Origin: Escherichia phage McMelon
Direction: 5' to 3' (one strand)
DNA length: 44,740 nucleotides
Sequence record: OR896838.1
This document shows, piece by piece, positions 2,918-39,732 of the stretch (its first letter is position 1; every line of letters begins with the position of its first letter). The position numbers were made by a program, and so were the translations under genes. The notes under the pieces are model-generated. The model did not search any database and had not been told where the DNA came from. It was given only the letters and a program-made list of their open reading frames with translations.

Positions 2918-4004
2918 TCAATATATGGCGGATCGAATGATTCGCCGTCACATCTTCACCCAGCGCCTGAGCAATGACCAGGCGCGACGGGTGCTGGCTA
3001 TGTGGGAGAAGTTCCGGCCCACTTTACTTGGTAAGCTGACCGAGTTACTTGATGGCAAAAAGTCCATGAGCAACAAGGCACTTACCACACTGTTAACTCA
3101 AATCGACAAGACCGTCAAAACGGAACTGCGCGCAGAGTTTAAAGTGCTGGCGGAGAGCCTTCAGGAGTTCGCCGACACCGAGGCTGATTATCTCGCGGAC
3201 ACATTAACGGCAGCGATCCAGCCCGCGGTCGCTGTGCCTGCGGTCGAAGTAGTGGGCGTTGTGACCGGCGCGCAGATTGCAGCGACTGCAATGAAAAACC
3301 CGTTCCAGGGGAACACCATGATGCAATGGCCTGATTCACTTTCCGAGTGGACCAGGACGCAGATCGGCAATCAGGTGCGCGCTGGATTCATCCAGGGCAA
3401 GCCGACTATGGAAATTATTGCGGACGTGAGGCGCGCGCTCGGCGGTCGAAGTGCGCAAGCTATCTCAAGCGTTGTTAAGTCCGCGGTCAACCACTATGCG
3501 GCGACCGCCCGCGAACTAATGGTAAAAGCAAATGACGATATTCTCGAAGGTCGCCAATGGTTGGCTACATTGGACACGCATACTTCTCCCATGTGCCAGC
3601 TACGCGATCGCCTGTTTTATCCGGTTGATGTTACTCCCGACACCAAAGGAAAGCGCGGCGGGAAAGTGGTGGCGGGGTCACAATATGGCGCTGGTCCGGG
3701 CAAGCTGCATTATTGCTGCCGTTCGACGGAGACGTGGAAAGTCAAAGGTATGGAAGATTGGCCCAGTGGTAAGCGTCCGGCACTGAAGGCTGACGCGGGC
3801 AGATTGCTGAGCGAGCAGGTCGACGCGCAGACTGATTTCTTCTCATGGGTGCAGCGCCAGCCGCGCCATATTCTGGAAGAATTATACGGAGTGCAACGCG
3901 CCGACCAGATTATGCGCGGAGTGAAAGTGCCGAAGATGTTCACCGATTCCGGCGAACTAATGACTATCGCACAGCTTAAAAACCGGGGGTTATGGCGTGA
4001 TTAA
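2901..4004 (+). CDS. head morphogenesis protein (SPP1 gp7 / Mu F-like)
   Basis: 367 aa; conserved LDTHTSPMCQ...GK-type motif; sits between portal and scaffold; overlaps portal 3' end. Confidence 0.7.
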   Translation: MAKTINQYMADRMIRRHIFTQRLSNDQARRVLAMWEKFRPTLLGKLTELLDGKKSMSNKALTTLLTQIDKTVKTELRAEFKVLAESLQEFADTEADYLADTLTAAIQPAVAVPAVEVVGVVTGAQIAATAMKNPFQGNTMMQWPDSLSEWTRTQIGNQVRAGFIQGKPTMEIIADVRRALGGRSAQAISSVVKSAVNHYAATARELMVKANDDILEGRQWLATLDTHTSPMCQLRDRLFYPVDVTPDTKGKRGGKVVAGSQYGAGPGKLHYCCRSTETWKVKGMEDWPSGKRPALKADAGRLLSEQVDAQTDFFSWVQRQPRHILEELYGVQRADQIMRGVKVPKMFTDSGELMTIAQLKNRGLWRD

Positions 4005-4326
4005 ATATGCAGCGATTGGACTGGTTATCGGTCTGGCGGTAGGATTCTGGCTAGGCGACTCCTATCGTACTGGCGTAGTGGCGGAGGCGGCGCAAGAAGC
4101 GCAAGCCAAAGCCCAACGGCAGCAAACTAAAGTTGTTGAGCGCTCCGTGCAGGCCGAACAGGCCCGCGACGTAGAATACCGGACTATAACGAAAGAGGTT
4201 GTTAAATATGTTACGCGCCCTAACCGCCCTGATTGTAGTTTTGATGCTGAGCGCGTGCGGATCAAGCAACGTGCCGTTGATGCCGCTAACGGAGTCGGCA
4301 CTGCGACCGCCGTGCAAGTTCGATAG
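3997..4326 (+). CDS. Rz: i-spanin (Rz-like)
   Basis: 109 aa; GTG start overlapping upstream stop; N-terminal TM helix (IGLVIGLAVGFWLG) then Q/A/E-rich helical region; Rz1-like ORF overlaps its 3' end in +1 frame. Confidence 0.6.
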   Translation: MIKYAAIGLVIGLAVGFWLGDSYRTGVVAEAAQEAQAKAQRQQTKVVERSVQAEQARDVEYRTITKEVVKYVTRPNRPDCSFDAERVRIKQRAVDAANGVGTATAVQVR

Positions 4327-4438
4327 CCCGTCCGCAGACCCCGACGAAGACTTGCTGGTCGATGTTAAGAATATGGAATGTGGTGCGAAGCTGAGGGCGC
4401 AAGTGCTGGAGTTGCAGAAAATAATTCGGGGGCCGTGA
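4208..4438 (+). CDS. Rz1: o-spanin (Rz1-like outer-membrane lipoprotein)
   Basis: Signal peptide with lipobox LSAC, Pro-rich mature region with second Cys; begins inside the Rz-like ORF in another frame and extends past it; RBS AAGAGG upstream of ATG. Confidence 0.6.
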   Translation: MLRALTALIVVLMLSACGSSNVPLMPLTESALRPPCKFDSPSADPDEDLLVDVKNMECGAKLRAQVLELQKIIRGP

Positions 4439-4452
4439 TGGCCCCCTTTTTG
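4427..4452. terminator. rho-independent terminator (likely bidirectional, between convergent genes)
   Basis: GGGGGCC-gtgat-GGCCCCC hairpin followed by TTTTT; the minus-strand gene stop lies at 4453. Confidence 0.7.
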
Positions 4453-5217
4453 TTAGCGCGGAATACCGCAGATTTCGTTTAACGTCTTAACATCCAGCGC
4501 CACCGCCGTGGATTTAGGCTTGTCCGGGTATGGAATGAACTGTTCCACTTCAGGCCACGCCTTGATCAGCTTCTTATCGGTATTGTGCATATCCAGCACG
4601 CCGGTAACGGTTAGTTTGAACGCGTCATACTTAGCTCGCAACTCGCGTCGGGCCTTGTCATTACGGTCCAGGCGCTTGCAGAAGTCGTGATTCGCCGGGT
4701 AGTCTATACGACCGCGTGGCATATATATCGGCAGCGCTTTTCCGTCATCGTCCAATTCGCACACTGACGCTAACAAAATTTCCTCACACCCAGGCACAAT
4801 ATCGCCGAGATCGGGAGACAGCTTATTCATGTATTTATATTCCCAGTATCCGCGATGTACTCGGAATCGGTGTCCGTCTCCGCTCAATGACACGGTACGG
4901 ACGTTTCCGCCGGCGTTGATTTCGAAAGTGGCGTCATAAACGCGGCCGATACCATACGGGCGGTCAGCGTTATAACTATACGTCGCCTTGTTGGTGTATA
5001 CGCTTACTCCGTACATCTGCGACGGGTCATCGCCGATTGCTTTAATGCGCGCGAGTAGCTCGGCGAAAGTGCGAATGCCTTCCGGCATACAGTCCAGCGT
5101 AATGGCGTACGCAAGGTCGCGAGAGTCCATCATGATGGATTTGGCTTCGGTCGCGATTTCATGGTCGCGCAGGATGTTAGCCAGAATCTGGTTTTTAATG
5201 TCTTTTGTCAGTCTCAT
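4453..5217 (-). CDS. hypothetical protein (orphan reverse-strand gene in structural module)
   Basis: 254 aa from the internal ATG (MRLTKD...) with RBS GAGGA 8 nt upstream; the longer track ORF upstream is an S/A/R-rich antisense shadow of the scaffold gene; no recognisable domain. Confidence 0.55.
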   Translation of the reverse strand: MRLTKDIKNQILANILRDHEIATEAKSIMMDSRDLAYAITLDCMPEGIRTFAELLARIKAIGDDPSQMYGVSVYTNKATYSYNADRPYGIGRVYDATFEINAGGNVRTVSLSGDGHRFRVHRGYWEYKYMNKLSPDLGDIVPGCEEILLASVCELDDDGKALPIYMPRGRIDYPANHDFCKRLDRNDKARRELRAKYDAFKLTVTGVLDMHNTDKKLIKAWPEVEQFIPYPDKPKSTAVALDVKTLNEICGIPR

Positions 5218-5246
5218 TTTTATGTCCTCGTTGTTGGTGTGCAACC

Positions 5247-5275
5247 AATATATGCAACCAATACGCGGATTGCAA
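5247..5275 (-). promoter_or_regulatory. sigma70-like promoter (TTGCAA-17-TATATT) for 4453..5217
   Basis: Minus-strand reading: TTGCAA, 17-nt spacer, TATATT, then GGTTGCACACCAACA and RBS; same -10 and downstream 21-mer as the promoter at 39364..39392. Confidence 0.45.
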
Positions 5276-5282
5276 GCGAATT

Positions 5283-5310
5283 TTGCGATTATTTTTATCA
5301 CTGATAATAT
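5283..5310 (+). promoter_or_regulatory. candidate sigma70 promoter for scaffold/capsid genes
   Basis: TTGCGA-16 nt-TAATAT upstream of the scaffold gene. Confidence 0.3.
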
Positions 5311-5365
5311 TAGAGGCGTGAAGTCGAGCGGGTGGCCCGCTCTGCCACAATCCCAGGGGGATAGC

Positions 5366-6067
5366 ATGAAACTTACTAAAGCAGAATATGACGCGTTGCC
5401 GGAAGGTATGAAGGCGCTTTTTGTTGCCGATGGTGACGGGTATAAATCAACGTTCATGACCGCAGAAGAAGTACAGGCGGAGATCAAGGGTCTGAAAGAC
5501 AACAACGCGAAGCTGGTGAGCGAGAAGAAAGCAGAAGCTGAACGTCGCGCCGAAGCCGAGCGCCTTGCGAAAGAGAAAGAGGAAGCCGCCGCGCGCAAAA
5601 ATGGCGACCTCGAAGCGATCGACAAGTCTTGGAAAGATAAGTTTGCGAAACACGAAGCAGACACATCGGGAAAAATCGAAGCCTATCGCAAGCAGATCCA
5701 CGATCTAACCATCGGCAGCGCGGCCAAAGACCTGGCGTCGAAGCTGTTCGGTAAGAATGCGGGCATCATGCAACGCCACGTAATGGACCGCCTGACGCTG
5801 GAAGACGGCGAAGACGGCAGCTTGAAAGTGCGTGTCTTGCAGGATGGCAAACCGTCCGCGCTGACTATGGAAGAGCTTGAAAAAGAGTTCCGTAATAACG
5901 CCGATTTCGCATCCGTCCTGGCTGGCACGCCAGCAGGAGGCGCTCCTAGCAAACCGACGCAGGTTGTCGAAGATGTGAAGTCTAAAATTACGATGGGCCA
6001 TAGCTTCGGTATCACCGATCTCACCAAACAGGCCGGGGATATCATCGCTAAAATGGGCGACGAGTAA
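5366..6067 (+). CDS. scaffolding protein
   Basis: 233 aa, strongly helical E/K/A-rich composition, directly upstream of major capsid gene; internal ATG of track ORF 4988..6067 with RBS GGGGGA. Confidence 0.65.
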   Translation: MKLTKAEYDALPEGMKALFVADGDGYKSTFMTAEEVQAEIKGLKDNNAKLVSEKKAEAERRAEAERLAKEKEEAAARKNGDLEAIDKSWKDKFAKHEADTSGKIEAYRKQIHDLTIGSAAKDLASKLFGKNAGIMQRHVMDRLTLEDGEDGSLKVRVLQDGKPSALTMEELEKEFRNNADFASVLAGTPAGGAPSKPTQVVEDVKSKITMGHSFGITDLTKQAGDIIAKMGDE

Positions 6068-10828: not shown

Positions 10829-11140
10829 TGAAGCGGGACGTCCCGCTTTGTCCCGCCCTGTAAAACCGCATATCTAATCACTTTCATTGCATAAACTCAA
10901 AGCGGGACAGGCGGGACGTCCCGTTTTGTCCCACCCATGAAATGTGCATACCTATTCGAATTTCGTGCATAAAACAAGCGGGACAGAAAGCGGGACAGAC
11001 AAGGGGCGGGACAAAGCGGGACAGCACCCCGTCCCCGCCAGTGCTGCCGCGGTTTTCAGCCGATCGGGACAAGCGGGACAAAGCCCAGTCTTTCAGACTA
11101 GACGGGGGTCAACGGCCCCCCTCGTCTGAGACTGAATAAG
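10829..11140. repeat. GCGGGACA iteron / palindrome array ending in GC-rich hairpin (copy A)
   Basis: At least 10 copies of GCGGGAC or its complement, including perfect palindrome GCGGGACGTCCCGC (10833..10846); terminal hairpin GACGGGGGTCAACGGCCCCCCTCGTC; about 150 bp nearly identical to 39030..39210. Confidence 0.7.
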
Positions 11141-20374: not shown

Positions 20375-21046
20375 ATGGCAAACTTCGGCGCGTTAATCGA
20401 TAACAACAACGGCAACCCATTCGTCACGCCAAACTCAACGCCATTCGTGCTCTATGCTAAGGTGTCGGCAAATTCAGTTGACGCAGGCGCGGCTTATAAG
20501 ACGGCTAGTGGCGCAGTGGATATCCCCGCGAACTATCCGGCGATGGTGTTTATGCGGTCAAACAACCGTTGCGTCTTGGCGGCGTCACGATCAGGTAATC
20601 GGATTATATTTAGCGGAAGCATTCAGGGTAAGAATAACCCACATTTTACCGTCACGGCGTACGTATTCGCGAGATTTCCGCAACCGCTGCCGAAATGGGG
20701 CTTTGCTATTTGGGACGCTAGCGGTACTTGCATACTAACCAACGAAAGCAAGGTTCTCACCGATCTAGTCACTGTCGGCAGCTTCGGTAGTAACGGGGGG
20801 ATCAACATAGACCAGACGCTGCCGGGTAAGTACGCGGTATCGCCTATGTTAATGGGCGCTACTCTGATCCAGATCTTTGTACAAGGGCAGCCGCAGATTA
20901 TCCAGATCTCGGCAGGGGCTGGGGCTTACGACAACGGAAGCGGCACTCGCATTAACGCCGTCGCTACGCGGGCGGGGTCTGGTAGCATCGCCGGGTATCA
21001 AAACACCGGCGTTGCGCTGACAGCAATTAACGTTGATGGGATATGA
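20375..21046 (+). CDS. hypothetical tail-associated protein
   Basis: 223 aa, Gly/Ser/Asn-rich; synteny only. Confidence 0.5.
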   Translation: MANFGALIDNNNGNPFVTPNSTPFVLYAKVSANSVDAGAAYKTASGAVDIPANYPAMVFMRSNNRCVLAASRSGNRIIFSGSIQGKNNPHFTVTAYVFARFPQPLPKWGFAIWDASGTCILTNESKVLTDLVTVGSFGSNGGINIDQTLPGKYAVSPMLMGATLIQIFVQGQPQIIQISAGAGAYDNGSGTRINAVATRAGSGSIAGYQNTGVALTAINVDGI

Positions 21047-21072
21047 ATAAGCCCCTTTCGGGGCTTATTTGC
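21047..21072. terminator. putative bidirectional terminator
   Basis: AAGCCCC-tttc-GGGGCTT hairpin between convergent genes; T-rich flank. Confidence 0.55.
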
Positions 21073-21283
21073 AGGTTGTGCTTTTGAAGTGGTCAACTGA
21101 CACATACTGGAAGTTAAACGGGTAGCCAGCCCTAAGCATTTTGTGACCGCTAAAATCTGCTACCCCAAACACGGGGACTGAGTAGTCCAAGCCGCTATTC
21201 TGGTATGTCGCGTCGCAGACTTTAGCTGGCATGTTGGCACAACCGGACAAAAGAACCGCACAAATCATAATTAAAGTTTTCAT
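21065..21283 (-). CDS. small outer-membrane lipoprotein (candidate Cor/Llp-like superinfection exclusion protein)
   Basis: 72 aa from ATG with AGGAGA RBS; signal peptide MKTLIMICAVLLSGC with lipobox; antisense to and embedded among tail fibre genes. Confidence 0.6.
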   Translation of the reverse strand: MKTLIMICAVLLSGCANMPAKVCDATYQNSGLDYSVPVFGVADFSGHKMLRAGYPFNFQYVSVDHFKSTTCK

Positions 21284-21363
21284 GGTATCATCTCCTATAT
21301 TTGGTTGAGTTTTAGTATTACACCTCTCGACCAGGATTGCAACCAATTTATGAGGATTCAGCT

Positions 21364-25461: not shown

Positions 25462-25954
25462 TTAATTCACCTTCGCTCATTATTTCGATTTGTGCGCTGC
25501 CGTTTGGCGGCACTTCGTCAAAGATTATCAACTGCTGGCACTTGTTATTGCTCGGCCCGACTTCACCGGTTACAGCGTGTATAAATCGGATACGCCAGTC
25601 CAGAAGAATTATCAGGTTTGCAGTCTTCCGGGCCAACCGCGCCCACTTCGTCGACGTGTCCTGATTCAGCAGCATGACAGTCCGGCGTCCGTGCGCTGCA
25701 CACTCGACCCACGGCAGCGGATCGGAATACGGCGGGTTGCACCACTTCCACCCTTTCAACTCTGACCAGTCCACATCGAGCGCGCTGTGCTCTGCCGTGA
25801 AGTAACGCGGTAGCAGGTGGTTGGCGTCGCTTGCCGCCATATCGTAACGGAATCGGTATTTCCGTCGAAGCGGTTTAAATAAAGCTGGCGGCGTGCGCCA
25901 GCTATCTTTTTGCTCACTCTCCGTCATTCTGCGGGTCCAGTGCGTATAGGGCAA
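25418..25954 (-). CDS. DNA N6-adenine methyltransferase (phage Dam-like)
   Basis: 178 aa; WRTPP near N-terminus, DMAAS and catalytic NPPY motifs; alternative start at 25927. Confidence 0.75.
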   Translation of the reverse strand: MPYTHWTRRMTESEQKDSWRTPPALFKPLRRKYRFRYDMAASDANHLLPRYFTAEHSALDVDWSELKGWKWCNPPYSDPLPWVECAAHGRRTVMLLNQDTSTKWARLARKTANLIILLDWRIRFIHAVTGEVGPSNNKCQQLIIFDEVPPNGSAQIEIMSEGELNEYLSRRPKSSRRG

Positions 25955-26378
25955 TTTTCTCTTTACTGTTTAGCACACGCCGGACTCGGGCCGTATCCGC
26001 CGGACCAAGAGGTCGGCAATCGGAATAGTAGCTGCCGTTTGTGGGATTGCGCCACGCCACAAGCACCAGGTCTTTACGGTCGATCTTAGACTGGCGGCCC
26101 TTCGGACGCACGTACTCCTCGGCGCGTTTACAATGTTCACGCAGACCTTCGGCAGTGATGCGGTTTAGTGCCACGCTGGTGGTGTATCCGGTGCGCTGCA
26201 TAATACCCATCAACTCGAAAAGCAGTTCGAAGCGTTCCTCTAACTCCTGGCGCACTTTCTTCTCTCCTTCATATAGCGCCTTGTTGGTGTCCGCCACCGC
26301 GTTCGCCCGTTCGGCCTGTTCACGGGCTTCTAGGCATTGCGCGGCCCAGTATGCCTTTTCTTCTTGTAAAATTCTCAT
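25914..26378 (-). CDS. hypothetical protein
   Basis: 154 aa, RBS GGAGA, helical N-terminal half. Confidence 0.5.
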   Translation of the reverse strand: MRILQEEKAYWAAQCLEAREQAERANAVADTNKALYEGEKKVRQELEERFELLFELMGIMQRTGYTTSVALNRITAEGLREHCKRAEEYVRPKGRQSKIDRKDLVLVAWRNPTNGSYYSDCRPLGPADTARVRRVLNSKEKIALYALDPQNDGE

Positions 26379-26402: not shown

Positions 26403-26423
26403 GGGTGTCCAAACCGGACACCC
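26403..26423 (-). terminator. hairpin with downstream U-run (terminator/attenuator overlapping promoter start site)
   Basis: GGGTGTCC-ggtttg-GACACCC followed on the minus strand by TTTTAATA; sits at the predicted +1 of the 26426..26454 promoter. Confidence 0.4.
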
Positions 26424-26425
26424 TC

Positions 26426-26454
26426 AATATAATGCAACCAATATGATTATGCAA
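26426..26454 (-). promoter_or_regulatory. sigma70-like promoter (TTGCAT-17-TATATT)
   Basis: Minus-strand TTGCAT, 17-nt spacer containing ATTGGTTGCAT, TATATT. Confidence 0.45.
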
Positions 26455-26459
26455 CCAAT

Positions 26460-29176: not shown

Positions 29177-29350
29177 TTATTCTTGTTCTGCGCGGTAGCG
29201 GCGCTGCCGTTCGCGCTCTTTCTTATTGCGGCACGATTTGCACTCGGCCCGATGACCGTCTGGACTGCGCGCGGTCTTGCCGGTGTATTTGTGGAACTGG
29301 GATAGCGGCTTGATGCATCCGCAATTACTACAACGTTTTTCTTCAATCAT
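29177..29350 (-). CDS. small Cys4 zinc-ribbon protein
   Basis: 57 aa from ATG with GAGGA RBS; CSNCGC...(about 20 aa)...CKSC followed by basic tail KKERERQRRYR. Confidence 0.4.
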   Translation of the reverse strand: MIEEKRCSNCGCIKPLSQFHKYTGKTARSPDGHRAECKSCRNKKERERQRRYRAEQE

Positions 29351-29390
29351 TTCTAAAATCCTCGACAGGGCTAACCGGCACACTATACCG

Positions 29391-29669
29391 CTACGCGACC
29401 AATTCAGCAACCAATAAATCGCAATCGGCTATGTTGTCAATAACGCGAACGTCAGCCCCGCGGCGGGCCATTCGCTCATGTTCTCGCACCTGGTGCGGCT
29501 TCGGTTTTCCACCGGGGCGCTTCACTTCGACGAATACTACGATGCCGTTGATGATAATAATCAGGTCGGGCGCACCTGCGCGCCCCTCCCATGCCAGTTT
29601 GCGGCAGAATCCGCCAACCTCTTTCACCCGTCGCATCAGGTGACTTTGTATCTTGCCTTCTGGAGTCAT
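29391..29669 (-). CDS. VRR-NUC domain nuclease
   Basis: 92 aa; PD-(D/E)XK-like core GAPDLIIII...VEVK typical of VRR-NUC. Confidence 0.65.
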   Translation of the reverse strand: MTPEGKIQSHLMRRVKEVGGFCRKLAWEGRAGAPDLIIIINGIVVFVEVKRPGGKPKPHQVREHERMARRGADVRVIDNIADCDLLVAELVA

Positions 29670-36281: not shown

Positions 36282-36611
36282 ATGAATGTAAACGACGCAA
36301 TCGAAATGTTAACGAAGACTGTTTGCAGTGAGACAAGCCGGTCGTGGGCATACACCGATGCCGTGGGGGCTGTGTTATTTGAAATCGAACGACTGCGGCT
36401 TACCGAAAAAGAATTGCGCGCCAGGCTGGAACTACTCAACGGTACAGCAGCAAGCAAGCTGCAAAAACACAATGAAGAAATGGAAGAATACAAAAAGCAG
36501 GTTATCCGTTTGCGCGCCGAGGGTAAATCATGGGCGATGATTGCCGAGTTGACCGGGATTAATCAGAGCACAGTGCGCTCCTGGGTACGCAATAATAAAA
36601 CTTCTAAGTAA
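36282..36611 (+). CDS. HTH DNA-binding protein (putative transcriptional regulator)
   Basis: 109 aa; helical N-terminus; C-terminal helix-turn-helix SWAMIAELTGINQSTVRSWV; first gene of rightward operon. Confidence 0.6.
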   Translation: MNVNDAIEMLTKTVCSETSRSWAYTDAVGAVLFEIERLRLTEKELRARLELLNGTAASKLQKHNEEMEEYKKQVIRLRAEGKSWAMIAELTGINQSTVRSWVRNNKTSK

Positions 36612-38886: not shown

Positions 38887-38961
38887 ATTCTGCGCGCATT
38901 GGTTGCCGATATGGGAATTCCCATATCGTTAGAAGATTAAATTTTGCGCGCATTGGTTGCC
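38876..38961. repeat. direct repeat - 22-bp perfect palindrome - direct repeat structure (candidate origin/operator)
   Basis: 31-bp direct repeats A(A/G)AAGATTAAATT(C/T)TGCGCGCATTGGTTGCC at 38876..38907 and 38930..38961 flanking CGATATGGGAATTCCCATATCG (38907..38928); third ATTGGTTGCC at 38986..38996. Confidence 0.6.
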
Positions 38962-39029
38962 ATTTTGAGTGTTTTTATCTGGTCGTATTGGTTGCCGTGT
39001 AGTGTAAATATAGTGAATAGTTATGCAGT

Positions 39030-39210
39030 TTTATTGCATAAAGCAAGCGGGACAAAAAGCGGGACAAACAAGGGGCGGGACAAAGCGGGACAGCACCCCT
39101 GTCCCGCCCCGGATGACGCGGCTTCCAGAGGAGCGGGACAGGCGGGACAACTCCCAGTCTTTCAGACTAGACGGGGGTCAATGGCCCCCCTCGTCTGAGA
39201 CTGAATAAAA
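39030..39210. repeat. GCGGGACA iteron / palindrome array ending in GC-rich hairpin (copy B)
   Basis: Near-identical to 10970..11140: same order of GCGGGACA units, GGCGGGAC...GTCCCGCC inverted repeat and terminal hairpin (loop differs by one base). Confidence 0.7.
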
Positions 39211-39363: not shown

Positions 39364-39392
39364 TTGCACCCACCCTGGCACCCTGCTATATT
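39364..39392 (+). promoter_or_regulatory. sigma70-like promoter (TTGCAC-17-TATATT) for rightward early ORFs
   Basis: TTGCAC, 17-nt spacer, TATATT, then GGTTGCACACCAACA and RBS GAGGAC; -10 plus downstream 21-mer identical to the 5247..5275 promoter. Confidence 0.5.
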
Positions 39393-39420
39393 GGTTGCAC
39401 ACCAACATGAGGACCGAACA

Positions 39421-39732
39421 ATGCGAGCATTAATCTGGAATTACACAATGGCGGTGGCGAAGCTGAACGAAGCGAAGGCACTAAACGGCAACGTAGACGA
39501 CGCGCGCCAGTTAGCCGCGCTGGCACACCAAGCTATAATGTGCGCCTTCGACGAAATGGACGCCTGTCTGGAAGGGCCAGAGTCCGGGCCGCTGCGCAAG
39601 GCAGTCCACGAATATGCGCTTGCGTTCTCCGATGAGCGCCTGGCGTATCGCTTCGGGATCGGCGAGACGGCAGTGACAAACGTCGCCCGGATTAAAGCCC
39701 AGCGCGAACTATTTGCCCAGCTTGCGAAATAA
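39421..39732 (+). CDS. hypothetical early protein
   Basis: 104 aa from ATG with GAGGA RBS; no domain recognised. Confidence 0.5.
   Translation: MRALIWNYTMAVAKLNEAKALNGNVDDARQLAALAHQAIMCAFDEMDACLEGPESGPLRKAVHEYALAFSDERLAYRFGIGETAVTNVARIKAQRELFAQLAK

Follow-up and report, generated by a model that had tools for sequence, protein, structure and literature searches.

The 44,740-nucleotide stretch of DNA from Escherichia phage McMelon (sequence record OR896838.1; hereafter the window) is a near-complete Dhillonvirus genome whose first gene encodes the large terminase, as follows from the database matches of the locus considered here and from a gene order along the whole window that is that of the complete SM_S22 genome. 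A minus-strand open reading frame (ORF) of 254 amino acids (5217..4453), flanked by the spanin pair and by the scaffold gene, had been described in an earlier note made from the sequence alone; it is present as described, and it is the Dhillonvirus nmad5 gene, a member of the PF18757 family and not an orphan. The gene was already known and has been studied by experiment in near-identical phages, in relation to the Tmn defence system (Yamashita et al., 2025, Commun Biol 8:290; PMC11846954). What is new here is that the residue changed in Tmn escape mutants, K216, belongs to the family motif, that the protein has no known fold, that a slot for exchangeable genes lies behind its promoter, and that this promoter carries boxes shared with the promoters of anti-Tmn, Lar-like and Cor-like genes. 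The explanation that we favor, with moderate confidence, is that nmad5 is expressed from a boxed promoter apart from the late genes, that a C-terminal surface of its product acts on a partner, and that K216E changes the function of the protein with respect to Tmn.

Family membership and the site of the Tmn escape mutation

The product of the gene aligns with residues 1–253 to the whole PF18757 (Nmad5) profile (positions 1–206 of 206; E = 6.1e-54, 183.6 bits against a cut-off of 27) and matches PHROG 1965 (E = 7e-62), which disposes of the description of the ORF as an orphan with no recognizable domain. The protein of phage KS_S9 shares 98.8% identity with it, and the region of about 1.1 kb around the gene matches 157 phage records at 80–96% DNA identity, nearly all of them Escherichia phages of the genus Dhillonvirus, with KS_S9 as the closest (95%) and the SM_S22 locus at 90.6%. 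Other searches were negative: the PADLOC defence and anti-defence profiles gave no match, an NCBIfam scan gave an insignificant sigma-factor match alone (E = 0.17) and a sequence search of PDB chains returned nothing, as did an Rfam scan of positions 4200..5500.

A profile search for nmad5 homologues returned almost exclusively close relatives, and a HMMER scan of 1.84 billion representative proteins found 169 Nmad5 relatives at E < 1e-3, most of them of 180–230 amino acids. In an alignment of 133 diverse homologues from this set, L217 is the sole invariant residue and T213, W221, P222, E223, L246 and N247 are each conserved in at least 90%; every one of these residues is present in the window protein, as is a well conserved N-terminal helix (R-L-T..I..I). 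The C-terminal residues form a near-invariant motif, the best conserved of the family, T-x-K-[K/R/Q]-L-x3-W-P-E ... L-N-x3-G-[L/I]-P. Position 216, a lysine in the window protein, is lysine in 76 homologues, arginine in 23 and glutamine in 21 (120 of the 133). Since it adjoins L217 and is so restricted, the Tmn escape change K216E reads in this alignment as a charge reversal beside the invariant leucine, within the core of the family signature. The gene is under strong purifying selection, with a ratio of nonsynonymous to synonymous substitution rates (dN/dS) of 0.125 among 11 distinct Dhillonvirus alleles, and the ratio is 0.03 for residues 206–254 and 0.58 for residues 51–70.

Genetics of nmad5 and Tmn

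Tmn is a membrane KAP NTPase defence that blocks phages with wild-type nmad5 10^5-fold (PMC11846954). Escape mutants of SM_A8 and of SM_S22 lacking its anti-Tmn gene share one nmad5 substitution, K216E / K296E, the two numbers being due to the SM_S22 annotation, which is 80 residues longer. Reversion of this substitution restores Tmn sensitivity and its engineering into the phage results in a 10^5-fold gain in plating, whereas a phage with nmad5 deleted is viable and still blocked by Tmn; cloned nmad5 is toxic to Escherichia coli, wild type and mutant alike (PMC11846954). Because deletion leaves Tmn inhibition in place (PMC11846954), nmad5 is by this measure not a simple trigger of Tmn. The actual anti-Tmn protein is the product of a different gene, whose homologue in the window lies at 25914..26378. 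The proposal that the ORF might be an anti-defence gene is thus borne out in that nmad5 is dispensable and linked to a defence system through Tmn, but not in that the wild-type gene gives no protection from Tmn (PMC11846954). In the lysate proteome of phage EE09, the nmad5 product (coding sequence, CDS, 32) is absent from the 24 proteins detected whereas its neighbors CDS28–30, 34 and 35 were detected, and the protein is therefore non-structural.

Start site and public annotations

The true start of nmad5 is the ATG at 5217, because residue 1 is where the Pfam match starts, MRLT is the N-terminus of distant homologues and many relatives have another gene immediately upstream. The features of the locus are as follows.

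4453..5217, minus strand: nmad5 coding sequence of 254 amino acids, K216 included, with the ATG at 5217 and the stop codon at 4453..4455 (ORF and translation)
5225..5229, minus strand: ribosome-binding site (RBS) GAGGA, 7 nucleotides before the ATG (read from the sequence)
5247..5275, minus strand: predicted sigma-70-like promoter TTGCAA (5275..5270)-17-TATATT (5252..5247), 9 of 12 matches in a consensus scan
5232..5252, minus strand: segment of 21 nucleotides covering -10 hexamer, discriminator and leader, TATATTGGTTGCACACCAACA, identical to 39387..39407 on the plus strand
5241..5261, minus strand: two TTGGTTGC boxes, one in the spacer (5261..5254) and one over the -10 hexamer and start site (5248..5241)
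4428..4446, both strands: GC hairpin GGGGGCC-N5-GGCCCCC with seven G-C pairs, common to the spanin operon (plus) and nmad5 (minus) (terminator scan)
39364..39423, plus strand: sister promoter TTGCAC-17-TATATT with the same 21 nucleotides, an RBS and the ATG at 39421 of a 103-amino-acid ORF (PHROG 9839)
5283..5310, plus strand: weak candidate divergent promoter TTGCGA-16-TAATAT facing the scaffold and capsid genes (read from the sequence)

The RBS is retained in relatives even with another gene inserted upstream. In SM_S22, CDS0006 (L001, 5005..6009, 334 amino acids) consists of the window ORF plus 80 N-terminal residues and has about 200 nucleotides in common with the scaffold gene; the extension crosses the promoter as well and was judged to be an annotation artefact. 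A frame of 403 amino acids from a GTG, or one of 334 as in SM_S22, was rejected on the same grounds of spanning the promoter and overlapping the scaffold gene, and it is impossible in relatives with an upstream insert. The EE09 annotation (L027, 1767..2447) gives 226 amino acids, and the conserved start gives 254.

Predicted structure and the fit of the name Nmad5

An AlphaFold2 model built from the 133 homologues reached a mean predicted local distance difference test (pLDDT) score of 90.5 and a predicted template modeling (pTM) score of 0.84; it replaced a run from 7 close homologues with a pLDDT of 38.6. The model comprises long N- and C-terminal helices, a small beta-sheet (79–110) and short C-terminal helices that bear the motif. 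Structure prediction had been put forward in the earlier note as a check that could reveal a virion protein; the model is confident and has no PDB relative, since the best Foldseek match to the PDB has an E-value of 1.3 and none is a solved or enzyme-like relative, and in BFVD it matches solely other Nmad5 proteins.

The name of the family comes from gene neighborhoods that include modification enzymes (Iyer et al., 2013, as relayed in PMC11846954). In annotated GenBank phages, from which the contexts of homologues were taken, some neighborhoods are of this kind: Pseudomonas phage M6 gp56 lies between the aGPT-Pplase gene and a thymidylate-synthase-like gene of the hypermodification cluster, the SN1 homologue is also inside a thymidine-hypermodification cluster, and in the N4-like Klebsiella phage Pylas the homologue stands between a thymidylate synthase gene and a PD-(D/E)XK nuclease gene. 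In the in vitro hypermodification work on M6, lysates of gp51–55 were tried and gp51 plus gp54 sufficed for the product formed, with gp56 unmentioned. In lambdoid and P22-like phages (HK542, Stx1 and Stx2 phages, Kapi1) the homologue belongs to the PL early operon, and in HK542 and an Stx phage it directly follows N and precedes cIII/kil, and the surrounding genes include none for modification. An early-looking block that ends with the homologue, just before the lysis genes, is found in Serratia phage Susuwatari and Escherichia phage C130_2. The common context is thus early or middle, one of DNA metabolism or host takeover, and not base modification as such. In the window, nmad5 is flanked by spanin and scaffold genes, in a neighborhood without DNA or nucleotide modification enzymes; a Dam-like and a second methyltransferase are encoded about 20 kb away, and JL1 keeps both of them with nmad5 truncated. 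No hypermodification genes are present in the Dhillonvirus genome, and Dhillonviruses are reported to be sensitive to restriction-modification systems.

Transcription signals of the nmad5 unit

The predicted promoter and the hairpin flank the ORF on its own strand, in keeping with the proposal of a separate minus-strand transcription unit within the late module. The promoter was the single site reported by the consensus scan within 3800..5800 and is conserved in Dhillonviruses of GenBank and IMG/VR. It had been called near-identical to the promoter at 39.4 kb, which is right from the -10 hexamer into the leader and not for the 17-nucleotide spacers, which are unrelated. The shared 21 nucleotides occur in exactly two copies in the window (0 expected; no match in 100 shuffles), and the RBS before the ATG at 39421 resembles that of nmad5; the first gene behind the sister promoter also varies between relatives. 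Folding of the shared leader revealed no structure (z-scores -0.8 and -0.4). Candidate sigma-54/NtrC-like sites in the spacer of the 39.4-kb promoter were rejected by inspection for wrong spacing.

The hairpin at 4428..4446 folds with -18.5 and -17.3 kcal/mol on the two strands (z-scores -2.1 and -2.8). It is followed by UUUUUGUU, a direct U-run, on the plus strand and by GAAUUAUUUU on the minus strand, so that the proposed bidirectional terminator is good for the spanin operon and has a weaker context on the strand of nmad5 itself. The divergent candidate promoter at 5283..5310 scores 8 of 12, under the scan threshold, in a stretch that is highly conserved in relatives. Combined with the strong plus-strand terminator, this candidate would divide late transcription into two units, one on either side of the nmad5 cassette.

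A family of boxed promoters

The shared 21 nucleotides contain the box ATTGGTTGC. The 11-mer TATTGGTTGCA occurs 13 times in the window with at most one mismatch (0.85 expected), and the 8-mer TTGGTTGC 21 times where about 2 are expected (simulation maximum 7), an over-representation of about 10-fold. The 8-mer is often found as ATTGGTTGCA, is often paired and occurs in both orientations, at 5.24, 15.9, 21.3, 24.8, 26.4, 29.4, 33.2, 36.1, 38.9–39.4 (six copies), 39.9 and 42.5 kb. The copies cluster between genes, with a single one in a coding sequence (15.9 kb), and none lies upstream of the plus-strand structural genes between 1 and 21 kb. At corresponding places SM_S22 has 21 copies and JL1 18. 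In several promoters (26458, 29414 and 21346 on the minus strand, 39364 on the plus strand) the box supplies the -35 hexamer, and at nmad5 and 39.4 kb there is a second box, which covers the start site as well as the -10 hexamer. The 39.4-kb promoter stands before a cluster of small ORFs. The promoters concerned and their genes are listed below.

26458..26430, minus strand: predicted promoter TTGCAT-17-TATATT, preceding the anti-Tmn homologue
25914..26378, minus strand: anti-Tmn homologue, 154 amino acids, 74% identical to SM_S22 CDS0035
29414..29386, minus strand: predicted promoter TTGCTG-17-TATAGT, preceding the Lar-like gene
29177..29350, minus strand: Lar-like zinc-ribbon protein, 57 amino acids (PHROG 5558, E = 3e-16)
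about 21347..21310, minus strand: predicted promoter AATTGGTTGCAA-17-AATACT (TTGCAA-17-AATACT at 21346), preceding the Cor-like lipoprotein gene
21065..21283, minus strand: Cor-like lipoprotein, 72 amino acids (MKTLIMICAVLLSGC...; PHROG 1119, E = 8e-27)
about 21043..21056: hairpin terminator of the Cor-like gene
36282..36611, plus strand: helix-turn-helix (HTH) protein of 109 amino acids with HTH_23 and sigma-70 region 4 matches, first gene of the rightward operon

SM_S22 CDS0035 is the anti-Tmn protein according to the supplementary alignment of PMC11846954. Its homologue is mis-annotated as "DNA ligase" in some records. Directly behind the 26.4-kb promoter, in the leader, lies a hairpin, GGGTGTCC-N5-GGACACCC, followed by TTTTT (about 26424..26404); this terminator-like structure might act as an attenuator. 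Relatives annotate the 57-residue zinc-ribbon protein as a Lar-like restriction alleviation protein. The Cor-like gene, whose product belongs to the Cor superinfection-exclusion family, is the second antisense gene of the late module; the tail genes lie on one side of it and the tail-fibre gene on the other, and its GC content is 0.457 compared to 0.544 for the genome. It is unannotated in SM_S22, and JL1 lists it as a putative phage lipoprotein. In its promoter a better hexamer, TAATAC, lies one base upstream at a 16-nucleotide spacing.

The nmad5 promoter type is therefore common to host-interaction and replication-side genes and not to virion genes, an association that fits non-late regulation of an accessory kind and suggests that it is separate and probably early. 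The boxes are probably the site of a phage regulator, and our guess for a protein that would bind them is the 109-residue HTH protein. This protein is confined to Dhillonvirus (154 records), where it occurs as two alleles (at least 90% and about 76% identity) variously annotated as transposase, resolvase or Gam-like nuclease inhibitor; because of this confinement, a link between protein and box by co-occurrence outside the genus is impossible.

The variable cassette and the question of a moron

Full-length nmad5 was found by tblastn in 145 records, compared to 154 for the HTH protein and 157 for the DNA of the locus, that is at the same position in about 145 of about 155 Dhillonvirus records (>90%). 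Counts of related records that carry the gene range from 134 to 145. It was lost in JL1 (a stump of 74 amino acids), in HK578 (L020; five codons) and in the IMG/VR genome L005 (none left), losses that agree with the published viability of the deletion. The composition is that of the genome, with a GC content of 0.52 (0.544 for the genome) and 0.62 at third codon positions (0.63 for the capsid gene).

In relatives, conservation of the promoter and leader extends to ...CACCAACA, and nmad5 retains an RBS of its own. The slot between the two is empty in the window, KS_S9 and SM_S22, and other relatives carry in it one of three unrelated genes.

Gene A, 135 amino acids, no family match: about 7 GenBank Dhillonvirus records
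Gene B, 172 amino acids, similar to part of the DNA polymerase III beta clamp (PHROG 3007 and 947): about 16 GenBank Dhillonvirus records
Gene C, 109 amino acids, PHROG 24635: about 61 GenBank Dhillonvirus records
Positions of these accessory genes in the relatives' loci: L002 792..1199, L003 790..1308, L005 2603..3121, L009 1357..1686 and L031 1725..2237

Homologues of the three genes occur in phages of Serratia, Erwinia, Salmonella, Klebsiella and Pantoea, and none of the three has a match in PADLOC. In phage rolling the clamp-like gene B comes after nmad5. In SM_W22, gene A has an internal tandem duplication of 37 amino acids. In the cassette, a swap slot follows the conserved promoter, and nmad5 and a terminator come after it; the moron-like behavior belongs to the extra genes. 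The comparison with related phages that the earlier note had proposed therefore gives a divided answer as to variability, with nmad5 itself near-universal and the extra genes of its cassette variable.

Mechanism and competing explanations

In the mechanism that we prefer, host RNA polymerase would transcribe the nmad5 cassette from its boxed sigma-70-type promoter together with other non-late genes, so that nmad5 is probably expressed with the host-interaction genes of that group and not with the surrounding virion genes; early expression is plausible. Nmad5 in Dhillonviruses would not be a DNA-hypermodifying enzyme and may be a binding or effector protein whose fold has no solved relative, and its conserved C-terminal motif would contact a partner in DNA metabolism, encoded by the cell or by the phage. 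K216E would alter this contact in such a way that the mutant protein, by its own action, prevents the activation of Tmn or circumvents it; the substitution is taken as a change of function and not a loss because deletion of nmad5 gives no escape. Several points weigh against this explanation. A literature search found no Dhillonvirus transcriptome or promoter study, and the use and timing of the nmad5 promoter are for that reason predictions; the boxes are found in either orientation, at varied positions relative to the hexamers, and may be operators, activator sites or plain promoter elements; direct contact of Nmad5 with Tmn, or with another partner, is hypothetical; E223, T213 and N247 could be catalytic residues of a new kind of enzyme; and the thymidylate-synthase-like neighbors in M6/YuA-like phages and Pylas leave room for a role in nucleotide or DNA metabolism. 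A bolder version, which is possible and which we hold only tentatively, is that Nmad5 is misnamed and represents a widespread class of early effectors with an unseen fold, whose motif docks on a partner monitored by Tmn, and that a genus-specific regulator bound to the boxes defines a host-interaction regulon including the anti-Tmn, Lar-like and Cor-like genes and the swap slot.

Alternatively, Nmad5 may be a component of a DNA base-modification pathway, with Tmn sensing modified DNA and K216E altering the modification. The naming of the family after modification-enzyme neighborhoods (Iyer et al., 2013, via PMC11846954), the cluster location in M6 and SN1 along with the thymidylate synthase neighbor in Pylas, and the two methyltransferases of the window speak for it, and the toxicity of the cloned gene could reflect DNA damage or modification. 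However, the genome has no hypermodification genes, the methyltransferases are distant and are retained in JL1, which lacks full nmad5, and deletion of the gene leaves Tmn sensitivity unchanged; many homologues reside in lambdoid PL operons without modification genes, M6 gp56 is outside the in vitro pathway, Dhillonviruses stay sensitive to restriction-modification, and neither an enzyme-like fold nor a conserved catalytic constellation is seen. We regard this pathway as unlikely, and as somewhat less probable still the interpretation of the earlier note, namely that the gene is a moron recently gained by horizontal transfer, equipped with a promoter and a terminator of its own, variable among relatives and acting in anti-defence, takeover or exclusion. 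Its predicted transcription signals in a position antisense to the late genes fit such an element, as do its dispensability with natural losses in JL1, HK578 and one IMG/VR genome, the collection of mobile genes with homologues in other phages at the locus and the action of a point mutant against Tmn, whereas its presence in full length and at one position in more than nine tenths of the records, its native composition, its strong purifying selection, the missing PADLOC match and the lack of Tmn protection by the wild-type protein do not. Finally, a role of the product in head assembly or in the virion is suggested by the location in the head module alone and is highly improbable, given the opposite strand and the separate promoter, the lysate proteome of EE09 with its detected flanking products, the viable deletion mutant and the natural deletions, and the early or replication modules in which homologues of other phages are found.

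Few phage genes are known to determine how sensitive a phage is to Tmn, and nmad5 is among them; its genetics are odd in that a point mutant escapes and a deletion does not, a question that the results on motif, fold and promoter make testable. For the engineering of therapeutic Dhillonviruses, a natural insertion site may be available in the variable slot that follows the conserved promoter.

Genome setting and other repeats

The remaining genes of the window follow the Dhillonvirus order.

3997..4326: Rz-like i-spanin gene, neighbor of nmad5
4208..4438: o-spanin gene with the lipobox LSAC, embedded in the i-spanin gene
5366..6067, plus strand: head scaffolding gene
Plus strand: terminase, portal, head morphogenesis, spanin, scaffold, capsid and tail genes
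Minus strand: replication and DNA-metabolism genes
Plus strand, after the replication genes: primase-helicase gene, small ORFs, lysis genes and exonuclease gene

Another 8-mer, GCGGGACA, is present in 17 copies in the window (2 expected). Two clusters of seven copies each lie about 28 kb apart, one at 10849..11080 in the gap before the tape-measure gene and the other at 39047..39149 just after the primase-helicase gene, where a mechanically called ORF of 84 amino acids (38944..39198) is probably not a gene. These clusters look like iterons or a replication origin.

Comparison with known systems

The nmad5 genes of SM_S22, SM_A8 and KS_S9 are the same gene at the same position with the same promoter and leader, and show no substantive difference save the annotated start. 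Other PF18757 proteins (M6 gp56, HK542 gp33, Kapi1_018) have the same full-length domain, N-terminal helix, C-terminal motif and predicted fold, although the Dhillonvirus protein is 40–60 amino acids longer than other members in its variable middle part. The setting differs as well: nmad5 in Dhillonvirus is a stand-alone antisense unit, whereas the M6 homologue is part of a hypermodification cluster and the lambdoid homologues of the PL early operon. With classical morons, such as the Cor and Llp genes next to tail-fibre genes, nmad5 shares the layout of an antisense unit that lies inside the late genes and has a promoter and a terminator, and the Cor-like gene of the window is an example of a true moron with the same promoter box. 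Unlike these elements, however, nmad5 is near-universal in its genus and compositionally native.

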